64,000 bases of DNA from Parcubacteria group bacterium. Its GTDB lineage: Bacteria > Patescibacteriota > Minisyncoccia > SW-4-49-11. This document shows positions 57,105 to 63,028 of the stretch, in pieces (position 1 is the first letter of the stretch; each line of letters begins with the position of its first letter). Both the position numbers and the translations under genes were made by a program. The DNA is taken from the NCBI GenBank assembly GCA_943354045.1, contig CALRBF010000001.1, forward strand, positions 259,860 through 323,859, given 5' to 3'. The notes below the pieces were generated by a model, which was not told the origin of the DNA, did no database searches, and saw only the letters and a program-made list of their open reading frames with translations.

Positions 57105-57137
57105 AATTTTGTTTTGAATAATTGAGGGGGGGGGTAT

Positions 57138-57324
57138 TCGATTTCTGGTTTTTTACTCGTTTACGGGGGTGTCTCCGATTGGGATCTCAGTCGCTATAGC
57201 TCCTTGGAAACCCACGGTTTCCAACACTCGGAGTAAACTCCTCGCTGCCTTCCTTCACGGGGAACTCCCGTTCCCCGACCCCTTCCCAGTTCGATCCTTT
57301 AATTATTTACTTTTAATTAATATT
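57138..57324 (-). mobile_element. Miniature insert 3' of tRNA-Arg: 49-nt exact direct repeat of the tRNA 3' end plus trailer, enclosing the conserved two-hairpin GC-rich module
   Basis: 'tcgatttctggttttttactcgtttacgggggtgtctccgattgggatc' at 57138-57186 and 57325-57373; module 'ttggaaacccacggtttccaac...ggggaactcccgttccccgaccccttcccagttcgatcc'. Confidence 0.55.
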
Positions 57325-57356
57325 TCGATTTCTGGTTTTTTACTCGTTTACGGGGG

Positions 57357-57430
57357 TGTCTCCGATTGGGATCGAACCAATAACCTACAGCTTAGAAGGC
57401 TGTTGCTCTATCCAATTGAGCTACAGAGAC
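57357..57430 (-). tRNA. tRNA-Arg (anticodon TCT)
   Basis: Reverse complement 'gtctctgtagctcaattggatagagcaacagc cttctaa gctgt aggttattggttcgatcccaatcggagaca'. Confidence 0.85.
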
Positions 57431-57750: not shown

Positions 57751-59754
57751 TTACCATTCCGAATCATAATCAGTATAAGTGAGCGACAATTGCTCCAAAA
57801 GATGATCTGGTATCTCAGTAATAAATCGTGAAGAAGGATTGGATTGAATTTGCCCAAATATACGCCTCAGCTGAGTATATGTCATATACAGCTTATCCTT
57901 GGCTCTAGTAATACCAACATAACACAGTCGACGCTCTTCCTCTAATTCTTTATGCGAGATGAGACTTCGGGAGTGGGGGAGTATACCTTCTTCCATACCA
58001 ATCATAAATACTACCGGAAATTCCAACCCCTTAGCTGCATGATAAGTCATCAAAGTAACAGCTTGAGTAGCCTGCATTCCATCAATATCGGATAATAATG
58101 CAGTTTCTTGCAAGAATTCATATAAAGCCTCCTCCACAGGGAGATTATCAAATTTCTGCGTTACCGTGAATAATTCTTCAATATATTCCATTCTAGCTTC
58201 ATTTTCTTTGCTTTTTTCCCAATGGCTAGTATATTGGGTGATTTTCAAGATATCTGCCACCAGCTGAGATAATGTATATTTATCTCTCTCAAAAGCCCCC
58301 TTAAGCTCAAAAATTTGCTCGCAGAAGACCATTATTCCTCTTCGGGCTCCTCCAGTTATCTTCAGAGAATATTTATCCGTATGGGTCAATAATTCGAGCA
58401 AATCGATATTTTGCTCATTTTCATTGCTCAATGAATAGGCTTCAAGGATTTTATCAATACTAGTCTTACCAACTGATCGCTTTGGCACATTGATAATACG
58501 CCGAAAAGAAGCCGTATCATTGGTATTATATAAGAATTTGAGATAGGCCAAAAGATCTTTGATTTCGGCTCTCTCATAGAATTTGGTACCCCCTACAATT
58601 TGATAGGGAATTCTCATCTGCAAAAAGGCTTCTTCCAAAGCTCGAGATTGCGCATTGGTGCGATACAGACAAGCAAATCCTGACAAAGTATATTTACCTC
58701 TAGCCACCAAGTCTTTGATGGTGCGAGCCACGAATAAACTTTCCTGATACTCATTTTCCGCCTCTACCAAATGAATTAATTCTCCTGATTCTTTATCTGT
58801 CCACAAATTTTTATCCTTTTTTTGGGTATTTTTATCGATAACCTGATTGGCAGCATCCAGAATAATTTGGGTAGAGCGATAATTCTGCTCTAATAGCACA
58901 ACTTTAGTATCTTTATAATCTTTTTCAAAATTAAGAATATTCTTAAAATCCGCTCCTCTCCAAGAATAAATTGCCTGAAAGTCGTCCCCAACCACACAAA
59001 GATTCTTATACTTATGCGCCAATAATTTTACCAATTCATATTGAGCCTGATTGGTATCCTGATACTCATCAATCATAATATAACGGTATCTATCCTGATA
59101 ACGCGCAAGTACATCTGCAAATTCCTTGAATAATATTACCGTATTCATAATAATATCATCAAAATCCATGGCATTATTCTTCCGTAATTGCTTCTGATAT
59201 TCTTGATATAATTCAATAGCCAATTCCTCTAGGGGAGTAGTAGGATTATAGTCAGCAAATTGACTGGCAGTAATGAGATTATTCTTAGCCTTAGAGATAA
59301 TATATTGTATGGAAGCTGGTTTCACCTGATCTTTGGGGATATCTCGTTTTTTGAGCAAATCCTTGATAATATTCTGACTATCAGTAGTATCATAAATCAA
59401 AAATGACTTATCATACCCCAAAGCCTCAGCCTCTCGATGTAATATATTCAGACAAACGGAGTGAAAAGTCCCCACCATAGGCATAGCGGGCACATTGTCC
59501 CCAAAAGAAGTCTCAAGCAAATGTTTGATTCGCTCCTTCATCTCTTTTGCCGCCTTATTAGTAAAGGTTACCGCCAATATACTATAAGGGGAAATTCCCT
59601 GAGCAATCATATAGGCAATACGCTTGGTAAGCGTAGAGGTCTTCCCTGAACCCGCTCCAGCTAATACCAAAACAGGACCTTCTATGGTCTGGGCTGCTTC
59701 CAATTGTTTGTCATTAAGTCCTTGTAGAATAGGATGAATTTTGTCTTTTGGCAT
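57751..59754 (-). CDS. uvrD: ATP-dependent DNA helicase UvrD/PcrA
   Basis: 'LAGAGSGKTSTLTKRIAYMI' Walker A; helicase motifs 'DEYQDTN', 'VGDDFQAIYSWRGA', 'TYHAAKGLEFPVVF'. Confidence 0.9.
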   Translation of the reverse strand: MPKDKIHPILQGLNDKQLEAAQTIEGPVLVLAGAGSGKTSTLTKRIAYMIAQGISPYSILAVTFTNKAAKEMKERIKHLLETSFGDNVPAMPMVGTFHSVCLNILHREAEALGYDKSFLIYDTTDSQNIIKDLLKKRDIPKDQVKPASIQYIISKAKNNLITASQFADYNPTTPLEELAIELYQEYQKQLRKNNAMDFDDIIMNTVILFKEFADVLARYQDRYRYIMIDEYQDTNQAQYELVKLLAHKYKNLCVVGDDFQAIYSWRGADFKNILNFEKDYKDTKVVLLEQNYRSTQIILDAANQVIDKNTQKKDKNLWTDKESGELIHLVEAENEYQESLFVARTIKDLVARGKYTLSGFACLYRTNAQSRALEEAFLQMRIPYQIVGGTKFYERAEIKDLLAYLKFLYNTNDTASFRRIINVPKRSVGKTSIDKILEAYSLSNENEQNIDLLELLTHTDKYSLKITGGARRGIMVFCEQIFELKGAFERDKYTLSQLVADILKITQYTSHWEKSKENEARMEYIEELFTVTQKFDNLPVEEALYEFLQETALLSDIDGMQATQAVTLMTYHAAKGLEFPVVFMIGMEEGILPHSRSLISHKELEEERRLCYVGITRAKDKLYMTYTQLRRIFGQIQSNPSSRFITEIPDHLLEQLSLTYTDYDSEW

Positions 59755-59924
59755 TATATATCAATATTATATTTTTTCTTTTGTACGGATAATTGTGGAG
59801 GCTCCAAGCAGACTCGCACTGCTGTAGAGGGTTTTGCAGACCCTTGCCTAACTTCTCGGCCATGGAGCCAATTACGGCTTTTAGTATAGCATAGATTCAG
59901 TTTTTAGGGAAATGATAGGAGAAA

Positions 59925-59958
59925 GAAAAAGCCCACCGTCCGAAGAGGTGAGCTGGGG
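59925..59958 (-). terminator. Terminator of small acidic gene 1 (shared terminator type)
   Basis: Minus-strand hairpin from 'cccagctcacctcttcggacggtgggc' followed by T5; same 'gcccaccgtccgaaga' core as 62074-62100. Confidence 0.5.
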
Positions 59959-59975
59959 GAGCTGGAAGTGGAGCG

Positions 59976-60272
59976 CTAGACTTCTCGAGGCATATCCTTG
60001 AGGATACGCTCGCGGGAAGATAGAGCTCCTGGTCTCAAAGATTCCATACAGTCAAGAACTGCTTGACTCAACCCCACCAGAAAATTTATCCCTTCGGGAC
60101 TCAACTCCTCAGAGAGAGGCATCTCGGGGTCCATCGGGTCCATCGAATCAATGAGGTCTATGGCATCAGTAGCCTCTGGAATCACAAAATTTCGATCAAC
60201 AAAGGCTTCGAGCGCTCGCTCGGCAAACCCTTCATTAAGTGCAGAGTCTAACTCTTCTTGGGAAATGGACAT
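59976..60272 (-). CDS. Small acidic protein (paralogue family member 1), GC-rich
   Basis: 98 aa, D/E/P-rich; consensus promoter 17 nt upstream; paralogous context to 62132..62281. Confidence 0.45.
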   Translation of the reverse strand: MSISQEELDSALNEGFAERALEAFVDRNFVIPEATDAIDLIDSMDPMDPEMPLSEELSPEGINFLVGLSQAVLDCMESLRPGALSSRERILKDMPREV

Positions 60273-60295
60273 AAAACTTATGCATCAACGCAAAC

Positions 60296-60324
60296 ACCAT
60301 ACCACATTTTTCTAATTTTGTCAA
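60296..60324 (-). promoter_or_regulatory. Strong sigma70-type promoter of small acidic gene 1
   Basis: Minus strand TTGACA (60324-60319), 17 nt, tgg-TATGGT (60301-60296); homologous to 62304-62332. Confidence 0.55.
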
Positions 60325-60371
60325 TATGTTTTGTGTTTTTGCTATAATGCTTATCTCTATTTTATAAACAT

Positions 60372-60515
60372 AATAGCTTATTTACTTATTTTTATATAAT
60401 TTTATATTTTACTATTATGTTATGTTTTATTATTATACATTTTAAATTTCGTAGTGCTTTAAGTCCCTCCTAAATAAATATAGGAGGGGGCGACCTTTCA
60501 GTCGCCCGAAACCTA
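60372..60515. repeat. AT-rich about 70-nt block duplicated at 62381-62450, plus a GC-rich repeat (m2 + m3)
   Basis: 'aatagcttatttacttatttttatataattttatatttt...' matches 62381+; 'gctttaagtccctcctaaataaatataggagggggcgacctttcagtcgccc'. Confidence 0.65.
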
Positions 60516-60597
60516 ACCCCAAAACTTGACAAAAAAACACTACTATTATAAAATATATTTACATTTGGCGTTAGCCACGTCCCTCGTTTACGAGGGC

Positions 60598-60996
60598 TCA
60601 TTGATAAAGATTTATAAATCCTTCTTTTACTTTAGCAAAATCTATTTCATTCAAAGACCCCATTTTGTTATGCCGTCTCCTATAATCAATTGTTCTGACC
60701 TGCTGTAAACAAGCTGTTATTCTCTTACCTTGATATTCATAGGCCACATACCAAGTACCTGTTTTATTTTTGGTAGTTGTAGGAATAACCAAATATGTCC
60801 ATTTACTTAATCTTTTTAATATAATAACTGGTCTAGAAAACTTATCTCCCTTACCGCTGACTTCTGTTCCAATATTCTCTCCTAATTGACACCACCAAAT
60901 ATCTCGTTCTTTGACAAATGGAGCTTTGTGATTACTTTTATCTAACTTAGATTTTAATACTAACCATTCCTTAAATCTTTTGATAAATTTTTGCAT
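60598..60996 (-). CDS. MazF/PemK-family endoribonuclease toxin-like protein; no antitoxin ORF evident
   Basis: 'ERDIWWCQLGENIGTEVSGKGDKFSRPVIILKR...YLVIPTTTK' matches the MazF/PemK core; surrounded by repeats. Confidence 0.55.
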   Translation of the reverse strand: MQKFIKRFKEWLVLKSKLDKSNHKAPFVKERDIWWCQLGENIGTEVSGKGDKFSRPVIILKRLSKWTYLVIPTTTKNKTGTWYVAYEYQGKRITACLQQVRTIDYRRRHNKMGSLNEIDFAKVKEGFINLYQ

Positions 60997-61054
60997 ATAG
61001 TATTGATATAATTTGTATAGATTATATCTTAACTAAAGCTATGTGTATAGGAGG

Positions 61055-61440
61055 AGGACGGGGTGGAATGTTCTGTATTCGTAGGGCTTTAAGTCCCTCC
61101 TATATTTATTTAGGAGGGGGCGACCTCTCAATCGCCCGTGGTATTATTGTCTCCCTTTTGGGGTAGTTTATTATTGTCCTCCTTTGGAGGAGGTGGATAG
61201 TTATTAAAGTTGTATTCTAGTTTTTGAATAAAATTTAGTAATATACTTTATCCACCCTCCCCCTACGGGTACTCCCTCCAAAGGGAGACAAAAATACAGT
61301 CCACACCCGTCACTTCGTGACACCCTCGCCAGCGAGGCCTGCCTGCGGTAGGCAGGGACAGTTTTTGTCCTCCCTTGGGGGACATTAAAACCCTCCACCC
61401 CGTCAGGCAAGCCTGCCACCCCCTCCCAAACTCTATGCTA
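61055..61440. repeat. Largest composite of mosaic palindromic repeat modules (m2, m3, variable-loop 'ggtggata...tatccacc' hairpin, m4, inverted m1, 'ccaccccgtcagg')
   Basis: Modules seen directly and shared with 46520-46745, 52320-52600 and 62455-62650. Confidence 0.75.
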
Positions 61441-61470
61441 TAATATGGATATATATACTAAATATTTTCT

Positions 61471-62070
61471 ATGCCCAAGCTCAAATCATCAACCTATACT
61501 TTCTCCCCCCTACAGGAGGGGACTTTGCCTTTTGATGCCAATAGCAAGCGCAATGTAACAGATCAATTAGCTTGGGCTAAAAGAGAGGATATTCTAGAGA
61601 CTATTAACCCACATAAAATCCCTATATCGCTCTTACTCGTGAATATTGACCGGGATAATAATATTGGTAATATAATCAGATCAGCTAATACTTTCGGGGT
61701 GCAGGAGGTGCTAATTTATGGCAGGAAAAAATTTGACCGTAGAACTAGTGTTGGAGCTGAATTTTTTATGCAATTTTGGCATATTCGCTTTGTTGAGGAG
61801 TTAGAGACTCTACAACAAGAATTTGATATTATACTCGGATTAGAACAAACCTCTGATTCAGTAGAATTACATAGCTATCAATGGCCTCAAAATGCTAAAA
61901 TACTAATTGCTATTGGGCATGAGGGTACTGGGCTTCCCCAAGAAATACTGGATATTTGTGATACTACCCTTGAGATTGAGCAATACGGCACCACCAGATC
62001 CCTGAATGTATCAGTTGCTACAGGGATTGTACTATATGATTATCGGGTGAAAAGAGAGTTAGTAAAGTAA
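61471..62070 (+). CDS. TrmH/SpoU-family RNA 2'-O-methyltransferase
   Basis: SPOUT motifs 'LLLVNIDRDNNIGNIIRSANTFG', 'IAIGHEGTGL', 'LNVSVATGIVLY'. Confidence 0.75.
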   Translation: MPKLKSSTYTFSPLQEGTLPFDANSKRNVTDQLAWAKREDILETINPHKIPISLLLVNIDRDNNIGNIIRSANTFGVQEVLIYGRKKFDRRTSVGAEFFMQFWHIRFVEELETLQQEFDIILGLEQTSDSVELHSYQWPQNAKILIAIGHEGTGLPQEILDICDTTLEIEQYGTTRSLNVSVATGIVLYDYRVKRELVK

Positions 62071-62100
62071 AAAGCCCACCGTCCGAAGACGGGGGCTGGG
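62069..62100 (-). terminator. Terminator of small acidic gene 2
   Basis: Minus strand 'cccagcccccgtcttcggacggtgggc' followed by T5. Confidence 0.55.
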
Positions 62101-62131
62101 AGTGGCTGAGAATCCACTCAAGATGAAGACG

Positions 62132-62281
62132 TTAGCTCTCCTGAGTGGGTTCAACCTCATGGGCTTCGGGGTCTACAAAGAACCCTTTAGCAGCTTCATT
62201 AGCCACTGGCCTGAAGAGATTCTCCAGAACCTCAAAGCCAAGCTGCACCAGCTGCTGGTCGGTGGTGGGGGTGGAGGACAT
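62132..62281 (-). CDS. Small acidic protein (paralogue family member 2), 49 aa from an internal Met; GC-rich
   Basis: 'MSSTPTTDQQLVQLGFEVLENLFRPVANEAAKGFFVDPEAHEVEPTQES'. The segment is open in three frames, so coding status is uncertain; the ORF-track N-terminal extension is AT-rich promoter sequence. Confidence 0.35.
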   Translation of the reverse strand: MSSTPTTDQQLVQLGFEVLENLFRPVANEAAKGFFVDPEAHEVEPTQES

Positions 62282-62303
62282 GTCAGACCTGAAAGACAAG
62301 CTA

Positions 62304-62332
62304 TATATACCACATTTCCTTAATTTTATCAA
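62304..62332 (-). promoter_or_regulatory. Strong sigma70-type promoter of small acidic gene 2
   Basis: Minus strand TTGATA (62332-62327), 17 nt, tgg-TATATA (62309-62304). Confidence 0.55.
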
Positions 62333-62454
62333 TACATCTTGTGATTTAATCATAATATCCACCCTTACTTTATCAATTTAATAGCTTATTTACTTGTTTT
62401 TATATAATATTATATTTTGATATTACTTTATGTTTCATCCTGAATAATTTTGAC

Positions 62455-62655
62455 TTTCGTATGGCTTTTGTCCTAAAATTCCCCTCTTGAGGGGTGTCAT
62501 ATTTACCTGACGGGGTGGAAAAGAAAATATTCATAAATAATACAGAAACACTCCACCCCGTCTTCCTGCTATGTAAACATGGCAGGAATCCACCCCTCAA
62601 CGAGGGGAATTTAACTCAATCCACCTGCTATCGATAAAAAGGGAGGACAAAATAA
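62455..62655. repeat. MITE-like nested palindromic element with about 30-nt imperfect terminal inverted repeats
   Basis: Left end 'ttttgtcctaaaattcccctcttgaggggtg'; right end is the reverse complement 'cacccctcaacgaggggaattt...gggaggacaaaataa'; inner inverted repeat 'tgacggggtgga...tccaccccgtc'. Confidence 0.6.
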
Positions 62656-62718
62656 TATCCGCCTCCCTACACACTAATAGCCAGTGTAAAAACTGGCTTT
62701 TTTATTATATATAAAATT

Positions 62719-62773: not shown

Positions 62774-63028
62774 TCAGAGAGTCGGCGGAATAGGGATTTC
62801 CCATTGAGCCATAAGGCTTTCATGGCGGACAAGAGCATATCTCGATTCATTACTATTTTCTTTTTTATGTTTTTCTCTGAAAATTTTTAACCAATAAAGA
62901 AATTTTTGAGTAACAGGATGATTAACATCCATAAACCCTCCAAAGAACAAATTATAAAAAATACTATACCACAAATTCTGACTTTTATCAAAAAAGTTAA
63001 GTTTTTTACAAGTTGAGGTAAAATACAA
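62774..63028 (-). CDS. Hypothetical protein downstream of rbfA
   Basis: 84-aa ORF; its C-terminal codons overlap the hairpin region, so the real gene may be shorter. Confidence 0.3.
   Translation of the reverse strand: MYFTSTCKKLNFFDKSQNLWYSIFYNLFFGGFMDVNHPVTQKFLYWLKIFREKHKKENSNESRYALVRHESLMAQWEIPIPPTL

Follow-up and report, generated by a model that had tools for sequence, protein, structure and literature searches.

We analysed a 64 kb stretch of genome from a member of the Parcubacteria group (the window, meaning the whole of this stretch; GC 35.6%), with a focus on two small GC-rich genes on its minus strand, here called unit A (98 aa, 59976..60272) and unit B (49 aa, 62132..62281). Read along the minus strand, the 3' end of infB is followed by rbfA, a 52-aa open reading frame (ORF) with its own promoter, GC-rich palindromic repeats and unit B. 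Further along come a convergent SpoU/TrmH-type methylase gene (SpoU; 61471-62070, plus strand), more GC-rich repeats, a solitary PemK/MazF-family toxin gene (MazF; 60598-60996, minus strand), unit A, tRNA-Cys and pcrA/uvrD. A sequence-only reading of this DNA had described the two units as paralogous genes with the same type of promoter, upstream block and terminator. For comparison we used about 30 related loci (identified by L numbers), which were oriented and marked for promoters, terminators and anchor genes, and we gained further unit A orthologues from genome and metagenome scans anchored on SpoU. The related contigs are labelled Candidatus Paceibacteria or Parcubacteria, i.e. they belong to the Candidate Phyla Radiation (CPR).

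Expression signals and coding bodies of the two units

Both units are preceded by near-identical promoters of the sigma-70 type with a TGTG extended -10. That of unit A (60296..60324, minus strand) consists of TTGACA, a 17-nt spacer and TATGGT, and that of unit B (62304..62332, minus strand) of TTGATA, a 17-nt spacer and TATATA. The corresponding strings, TTGACAAAATTAGAAAAATGTGGTAT at 60299-60324 and TTGATAAAATTAAGGAAATGTGGTAT at 62307-62332 on the minus strand, are the only matches to the promoter pattern in the window, where shuffled sequences gave an expectation of 0. The sequence-only reading had placed its promoters at these positions, and they are present as a unique pair, although its search pattern as written is one base short (RR instead of RRR) and matches nothing. 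Since more than 120 unrelated viral contigs carry the core promoter string, that string by itself is a generic strong-promoter consensus and no signature.

The similarity continues upstream, over 162 nt at 75% identity (60299-60460 against 62307-62468) including a 28-mer with 27 of 28 identical positions. It encloses an A-rich block in each unit (60325..60453 for A and 62333..62461 for B, both minus strand). The distance from the TACGAAA at which the block starts to the -35, counted in both units, is exactly 129 nt, and the block of unit A holds a second promoter-like site. The full block occurs twice in the 64 kb. An AT-rich block had been claimed to be duplicated over about 70 nt; the duplication is real but more extensive than that. 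A rough look at the A-tracts showed no clear phasing of 10-11 nt. The far end of each block adjoins GC-rich palindromic elements that resemble repetitive extragenic palindromic (REP) sequences, at 60454..60508 for unit A, where the element is one copy of a 61-nt repeat bracketing MazF, and at 62462..62620 for unit B (both minus strand). The expected GC-rich repeat is thus found at both blocks, but the elements are of different types: ggcgac..gtcgcc/cctcc..ggagg at one block and ccaccccgtc/cccctc..gagggg at the other.

Downstream of the promoters, both ORFs open with ATGTCC, 26 nt (A) or 25 nt (B) past the TAT of the -10, and the 26-nt offset is seen again in most of the related cassettes described below. 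This implies a leader of about 16 nt, close to the 15 nt or so that had been noted, without a Shine-Dalgarno sequence; for unit A it would span 60273..60289 (minus strand), with the transcription start predicted from the -10. The missing Shine-Dalgarno sequence had been singled out as a notable feature but is ordinary here, as only 3 of the 53 long ORFs (at least 120 aa) in the window have the core of one. Across the whole window many start codons lie a few bases past TATAAT-like hexamers, which suggests that short-leader or leaderless mRNAs may be widespread in this genome.

Each unit ends in a predicted intrinsic terminator. In that of unit A (59926..59957, minus strand) a T-run comes after a hairpin whose loop is TTCG, and that of unit B (62069..62100, minus strand) lies just past the 3' end of the convergent SpoU gene. 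The two 32-nt terminators are 91% identical, and their common 16-mer core, already seen by the earlier reader, is TCTTCGGACGGTGGGC, which occurs exactly twice in the window against 0.14 expected, at these two sites only. Among the unit A orthologues the stem sequence varies while its pairing is preserved. Across 18 aligned modules there is hardly any variation in the -35, in the TGTGGTAT motif (TGTGnTAT) or in where the ATG lies, so that the expression signals are kept across many related genomes. The idea of autonomous promoter-ORF-terminator units with duplicated expression signals is supported by these results.

The coding bodies gave a different result. Local DNA alignment of the two bodies did not score above shuffles (p = 0.19), and a hidden Markov model (HMM) of the unit A family gave E > 0.1 against unit B in all three frames. 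The weak peptide similarity between the units that had been pointed out is therefore not above chance, and the term paralogous applies to the regulatory module and terminator, not to the bodies. The duplication thus appears to cover the expression module only, with bodies that are not detectably homologous.

We considered whether A and B are nevertheless true paralogues that arose by whole-gene duplication, after which the bodies diverged under diversifying selection while the regulatory parts were constrained. Both products are acidic (pI around 4.1), both ORFs start with ATGTCC and have an atypically high GC content at third codon positions (GC3), and the terminator cores are identical. The unit A family also evolves fast, with ratios of nonsynonymous to synonymous divergence (dN/dS) of up to about 1, and bodies can diverge or be replaced behind a common start, as seen in the first cassette of locus L021, which has about 11 codons in common with unit A. 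Against whole-gene duplication stand the chance-level similarity of the bodies and the many other cassettes with clearly unrelated bodies (hydrophobic, Gly/Trp-rich, basic). In addition, the unit B module, including its A-rich block, shares 83-84% identity with unit A modules from other genomes versus 75% with the one in the window itself, which argues against a simple recent duplication within the genome. Considering this, we regard paralogy of the bodies as quite unlikely.

Coding status of units A and B

The sequence-only reading had described GC-rich (about 50%) acidic ORFs of 98 and 49 aa, and these are present. Unit A (pI 4.05, predicted to be helical) has a GC content of 0.49 compared to 0.356 in the window, and a GC3 of 0.46 compared to 0.25 +/- 0.05 in 42 long ORFs. 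A search of 5.8 billion proteins revealed seven homologues of 68-98 aa, all of them encoded between the SpoU methylase gene and tRNA-Cys/pcrA, and a profile search of 1.84 billion representative proteins placed the family in three clusters at 50% identity. The family is very small and restricted to this clade. The ORF is open in 11 of 11 orthologues, with a conserved stop and an ATG at the same position relative to the promoter in all of them. At least six independent indels (3, 9, 9-12, 12, 81 and about 90 nt) are every one a multiple of three. Variable sites are distributed 39/29/47 over the three codon positions, and the GC1/GC2/GC3 pattern is typical for a reading frame. On this comparative evidence unit A is a real protein gene.

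A structured small RNA had been proposed as an alternative for the unit B segment, and it could apply to both units or at least to unit B, the ORFs being incidental because GC-rich sequence has few stops. The GC-rich bodies in an AT-rich genome would fit, as would folding z-scores of -2.7 (unit A) and -2.1 (unit B), the unusually low synonymous divergence of unit A and, for unit B, open frames in four of six and the lack of protein homologues. However, a search of the whole window against Rfam 15 covariance models at gathering scores returned tRNAs only, and even at E <= 10 no non-tRNA match within 59700-62700 came near the gathering score of its family. The RNAalifold covariation term over the 11 unit A orthologues was unfavourable (+1.53), and compensatory changes were essentially confined to the terminator stem, as expected of a terminator. 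The Rfam and covariation checks that the earlier reader had suggested thus yielded no family and no covariation support for unit A, and with the in-frame indels and the preserved ORF they speak against a structured RNA there. For the units in general, an ATG opening an ORF of at least 46 aa lies at a fixed distance from the promoter across unrelated bodies, and the called-frame GC1/GC2/GC3 pattern of unit B mirrors that of unit A. We consider an RNA nature of the units very unlikely.

Homology searches assigned no described family to the product of unit A, which had no match in Pfam (E <= 1), PHROGs or PADLOC, nor in a PDB sequence profile search. Matches of the profile search to LVIVD-repeat proteins (PF08309) were judged spurious, as they came via a short acidic LDLIDxxDP motif; unit A itself has no Pfam match of any kind at E <= 1 and is predicted to be helical. 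A role as a MazE-type antitoxin of the adjacent MazF was also rejected, since unit A has no Pfam hit and neither gene depends on the presence of the other: unit A is present without MazF in most relatives, while MazF lies beside a different cassette in L012 and beside no cassette in L029.

Orthologues show almost no variation over roughly the final 45 nt of the unit A ORF (59976-60020; ATCCTCAAGGATATGCCTCGAGAAGTCTAG) and over the first part of the 3' untranslated region. This holds even in L014, the most diverged orthologue, in which the rest of the gene has a synonymous divergence (dS) of 0.7-1.7. The stretch includes a short palindrome, ATCCTcaAGGAT, and may reflect nucleotide-level constraint or a recombination boundary.

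Unit B (pI 4.1) is a more difficult case. Its GC content is 0.55 and its GC3 of 0.62 lies about seven standard deviations above the mean of the long ORFs. Unit B is open in four of six frames (two minus and two plus), where three open frames had been reported for the segment 62100-62320. The plus-strand ORFs run antisense through the conserved promoter, and the recorded gene call (P0019) is on the minus strand. The public annotation of unit B is a 73-aa protein from an ATG at 62353, which lies upstream of the conserved promoter, in the -10 hexamer belonging to the second promoter-like site. A 49-aa product that starts at the ATG at 62281 would suit the cassette architecture better than the annotated 73 aa. 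Within this reading frame, the GC1/GC2/GC3 values of 0.66/0.36/0.62 resemble those of unit A and of another GC-rich cassette gene. Unit B had no significant match in Pfam or PADLOC and only a weak one in PHROGs, to phrog_1371 (unknown function; E 0.0099).

Among the 5.8 billion proteins searched, the relatives of unit B were its own 73-aa annotation and a one-codon variant only. The variant comes from 13 contigs of a nearly identical population, in which unit B is about 99.5% identical. In L012 and L024, which are the nearest relatives examined after that population, unit B is missing. These results raise the possibility that unit B is a non-functional or very young by-product, in which a copy of module and terminator came to lie beside, or captured, arbitrary GC-rich DNA, and that the 49-codon ORF is due to chance or is a de novo candidate. 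Its orphan status outside its own species and its absence from both relatives would fit this, as would the several open frames and the extreme GC3. Unit B is also the shortest ORF among the cassettes with an A-rich block; the one shorter ORF behind this type of promoter is a membrane ORF of 46 aa that lies downstream of pcrA. Conversely, its promoter, ATG spacing and terminator are all intact, and its frame-specific GC pattern is like that of real cassette genes. Its preservation in the second population also counts against a by-product but says little, as that genome is almost identical overall. We hold this alternative to be somewhat unlikely.

The SpoU/tRNA-Cys gap in related genomes

The gap between SpoU and tRNA-Cys, in which unit A lies, contains zero, one, two or four cassettes in loci L012-L032. 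Most loci have one, L017 has two and L021 and L032 have four. No cassette is found in L013, L018 and L026, while L029-L031 retain a leftover terminator alone. In the tandem arrays the order between ORFs is conserved: terminator, ggcgac..gtcgcc hairpin, cTACGAA, A-rich block, promoter, leader and ATG. The ORFs in the gap encode 64 to 126 aa, some of them acidic, some basic and one Gly/Trp-rich; similar promoters elsewhere in these loci drive ORFs of 46 to 195 aa, and hydrophobic examples occur outside the gap. None of ten other cassette proteins had a significant match in Pfam, PHROGs or PADLOC. Compared with the unit B module, those that precede unrelated ORFs have an identity of 76-84%. By sequence comparison, the gap is a hypervariable recombination hot spot in this Paceibacteria clade, with unit A as one of its cassettes and unit B as a species-specific cassette on the other side of SpoU.

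Unit A itself appears to have moved between lineages. Its pairwise dN/dS is 0.4-1.0, and its dS is 0.04-0.4 versus 0.4-2.2 for pcrA and SpoU in the same genome pairs. The most extreme pair is L024 and L027, with a dS of 0.04 in unit A and of 2.15 in pcrA. The identity profile of this pair contains a tract of about 240 nt inside the ORF at 98-100%, with flanks at 65-85%. A second mosaic is found in L166, a metagenomic population whose infB-rbfA-unit B segment and pcrA both match the window at about 100%, while the stretch from SpoU through unit A is 75-88% identical or replaced. Over 59930-61990 this population has a divergent SpoU allele (75-88%), lacks the MazF segment and has a 75-aa gene called at the unit A site. 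The exchanged tract therefore includes a housekeeping methylase gene, the divergent SpoU lying between nearly identical flanks. L012, with a pcrA 98.7% identical to that of the window, nevertheless has a different ORF of 76 aa in the place of unit A. In the first cassette of L021, the shared first 11 or so codons are followed by complete divergence, so breakpoints also fall inside ORFs. The L024/L027 and L166 mosaics are recombination tracts, and the cassette and even SpoU move from one lineage to another.

The module or its promoter also reaches beyond the gap, as seen from genes at other places. The same type of promoter precedes genes without known relatives at L001 87-731, L024 7452-7850, L016 7682 and L018 6980, one of these genes being a 195-aa ORF with 58% GC and a GC3 of 0.65 and others being small ORFs downstream of pcrA, including the 46-aa membrane ORF and one of 123 aa. 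In the window, a third promoter of this type (TTGATAAAAGTCAGAATTTGTGGTAT) is found at the 52-aa ORF after rbfA (62774-62991, minus strand). This ORF has a GGAGG Shine-Dalgarno sequence, which is uncommon in the genome, and its products differ strongly between relatives (MDVNHPV..., MPKLYPGH..., MSTLVDT...) while promoter and terminator are retained. In L012, part of the A-rich block precedes the small ORF after rbfA.

This distribution bears on whether the module is a small non-autonomous mobile element, of the miniature inverted-repeat transposable element (MITE) or REP type, with an outward-facing promoter and moved by transposition instead of homologous recombination. It always starts at cTACGAA beside GC-rich palindromic repeats that are dispersed in the window, the partial block of L012 stands before a different gene, and the promoter type recurs at other genes (L001 position 87, L024 position 7452). 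Yet we saw neither terminal inverted repeats nor target-site duplications at the module and no gene for a transposase or of the RAYT type in its vicinity, and the full block is present only twice in 64 kb. The recombination tracts described above are what homologous exchange would give. Transposition of the module is, in our view, distinctly improbable.

Several other repeats and insertions were observed. GC-rich palindromic (REP-like) repeats of several types are dispersed in this AT-rich genome, at 3895, 5237, 5902, 27525, 35981, 36100 and 46531, and pile up at the hot spot (60465-60508, 61040-61430 and 62474-62660). The motif cTACGAA recurs as the junction between GC-rich elements and the A-rich block. 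MazF has no adjacent antitoxin ORF and lies between two direct repeats of 61 nt (60448-60508 and 61078-61138), which consist of GC-rich palindromes and have 89% identity. It is present in L012, L029 and L164 and absent from most relatives, and because of this patchy presence it behaves as another insertable unit at the hot spot. Outside the hot spot, a perfect 50-nt direct repeat (57137-57186 and 57324-57373) brackets a GC-rich insert of about 137 nt. Its second copy overlaps the 3' end of tRNA-Arg(TCT) (57355-57430, minus strand), and the arrangement looks like an attachment-site duplication left by an element integrated at this tRNA gene.

Interpretation and comparison with known systems

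We suggest that A and B are each an independent cassette for the expression of one small protein, and that they have a propagated regulatory module in common while their coding bodies are unrelated (probability around 0.7). The module begins with the TACGAA junction beside GC-rich palindromic repeats and the 129-nt A-rich block with its second promoter-like site. It continues with a sigma-70 type promoter of strong consensus (TTGACA, 17 nt, TGTGnTATnnT), then a predicted leader of some 16 nt lacking a Shine-Dalgarno sequence and an ATG at fixed distance, and closes with a GC-rich intrinsic terminator past the ORF. Transcription from the extended -10 promoter would be strong and constitutive, possibly aided by the A-rich block and the tandem second promoter, and translation would start without a Shine-Dalgarno sequence, like that of most genes in this genome. 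The modules may serve as homology arms, between which homologous recombination would duplicate, delete and swap cassettes. Unit A is, on the sequence comparison, a fast-evolving accessory gene that codes for protein and passes between lineages. We infer that the cassettes encode acidic, helical proteins that stay in the cytoplasm, bind some partner and have an accessory role. Their small size, acidity, fast evolution and strain-level turnover lead us to guess at a role in conflict with phages or hosts.

A number of points weigh against this interpretation. The promoters, the transcription start and translation are all deduced from consensus matches and conservation. Unit B is only a candidate coding gene, by its cassette architecture and a frame-like GC pattern, and it has no homologue beyond its own species, where the sole variant differs by one codon. 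For unit A, dN/dS values of 0.4-1.0 are weak evidence of purifying selection on the protein, and its low dS could partly reflect nucleotide-level constraint and not transfer. Structure prediction, another check that the earlier reader had suggested, gave a helical AlphaFold2 model of unit A, but one of low confidence (pLDDT 63) and without a significant fold match (no PDB match with E < 5 in Foldseek). Finally, the site has no linked gene for a recombinase or another mobility function, and the mechanism of turnover is itself a deduction.

A more far-reaching version of the cassette interpretation, which we consider unlikely, is that the site is a plug-and-play expression platform. In such a tandem array, freely exchangeable small ORFs would be set apart by a conserved module some 300 nt long, made up of terminator, REP junction, A-rich block, strong promoter and a fixed leader with its ATG, recombination between modules would spread fast-evolving small effectors, and unit B would be a candidate newly born gene. 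If so, the effectors might act against phages, for example, or on the host cell of these episymbionts, and GC-rich foreign or non-coding DNA could become exposed to expression. It would be a cassette system free of integrases in which each cassette has its own promoter.

CPR/Patescibacteria have small, streamlined genomes in which a large share of genes is without known function. The site could give concrete access to the accessory biology by which strains of these uncultured episymbionts differ, including host or phage interaction, and may be a case from nature in which promoters propagate together with an exchange of cassettes. The promoter, leader and terminator of the module could be used as an expression part for CPR genetics, and unit B, if recently born, would offer a compact bacterial case for the study of gene origin. 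Should none of this hold, what is left is two hypothetical small genes with a duplicated promoter region.

The units could not be assigned to a described defence or anti-defence family: neither matched PADLOC, and PHROGs gave no match for A and the weak one to phrog_1371 for B. Neither viral contigs nor the records of phages and plasmids yielded a relative of A or B (at the DNA level, one record set was checked for each, phages for unit B and plasmids for unit A). A novel anti-defence role is possible. Anti-CRISPR and anti-defence islets of phages and mobile elements are similar in that they encode small, often acidic proteins without known relatives, have strong promoters and turn over rapidly at a fixed position between conserved genes. 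Unlike these islets, the cassettes have a chromosomal housekeeping context (infB-rbfA, SpoU, tRNA-Cys, pcrA) and no aca-type regulator. Mycoplasma variable surface lipoprotein loci of the vlp/vsp/vsa type likewise consist of clustered genes with a highly conserved promoter and 5' region and divergent bodies. In contrast to those, the products here look cytoplasmic and acidic and have no signal peptide, lipobox or internal repeats, and neither a phase-variable tract nor a site-specific invertase was seen.

The cassettes resemble integrons in forming tandem arrays of small, mostly unknown ORFs that vary among close relatives at a fixed site, with conserved sequence between the ORFs. However, integron cassettes are promoterless, whereas each cassette here has a consensus promoter and an intrinsic terminator, and turnover appears to proceed by homologous recombination. 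There is no integrase among the genes called in the syntenic loci, nor was an attI or attC-like site seen, although no dedicated attC model was used.

The closest published concept for the A/B pair is that of putative mobile promoters (PMPs; Matus-Garcia, Nijveen and van Passel 2012, Nucleic Acids Res 40:10032, PMC3488235). PMPs are upstream regions (-150 to -50 from the start codon) with an alignment longer than 50 nt and an identity of at least 80%, while the downstream and upstream coding sequences do not align; they are defined by similarity only, and no cassette array is implied (PMC3488235). The A/B pair has the same properties, with highly similar upstream regions before non-homologous genes in one genome. 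The upstream regions align ungapped over 71 nt at 80% (best 50 nt at 90%), and the coding bodies do not align (p = 0.19; E > 0.1). As for the upstream genes, MazF precedes A and the 52-aa ORF precedes B, and no repeat links them. Unlike PMPs, the system described here has a co-duplicated terminator, a leader and ATG at fixed distance, tandem arrays of zero to four cassettes at one chromosomal hot spot and cassette swaps from lineage to lineage. We found no description of an equivalent cassette array in the literature on CPR bacteria. The two genes themselves are ordinary hypothetical small genes; what is unusual is their cassette-array context, as a variant form of promoter propagation and of variation at a hot spot.

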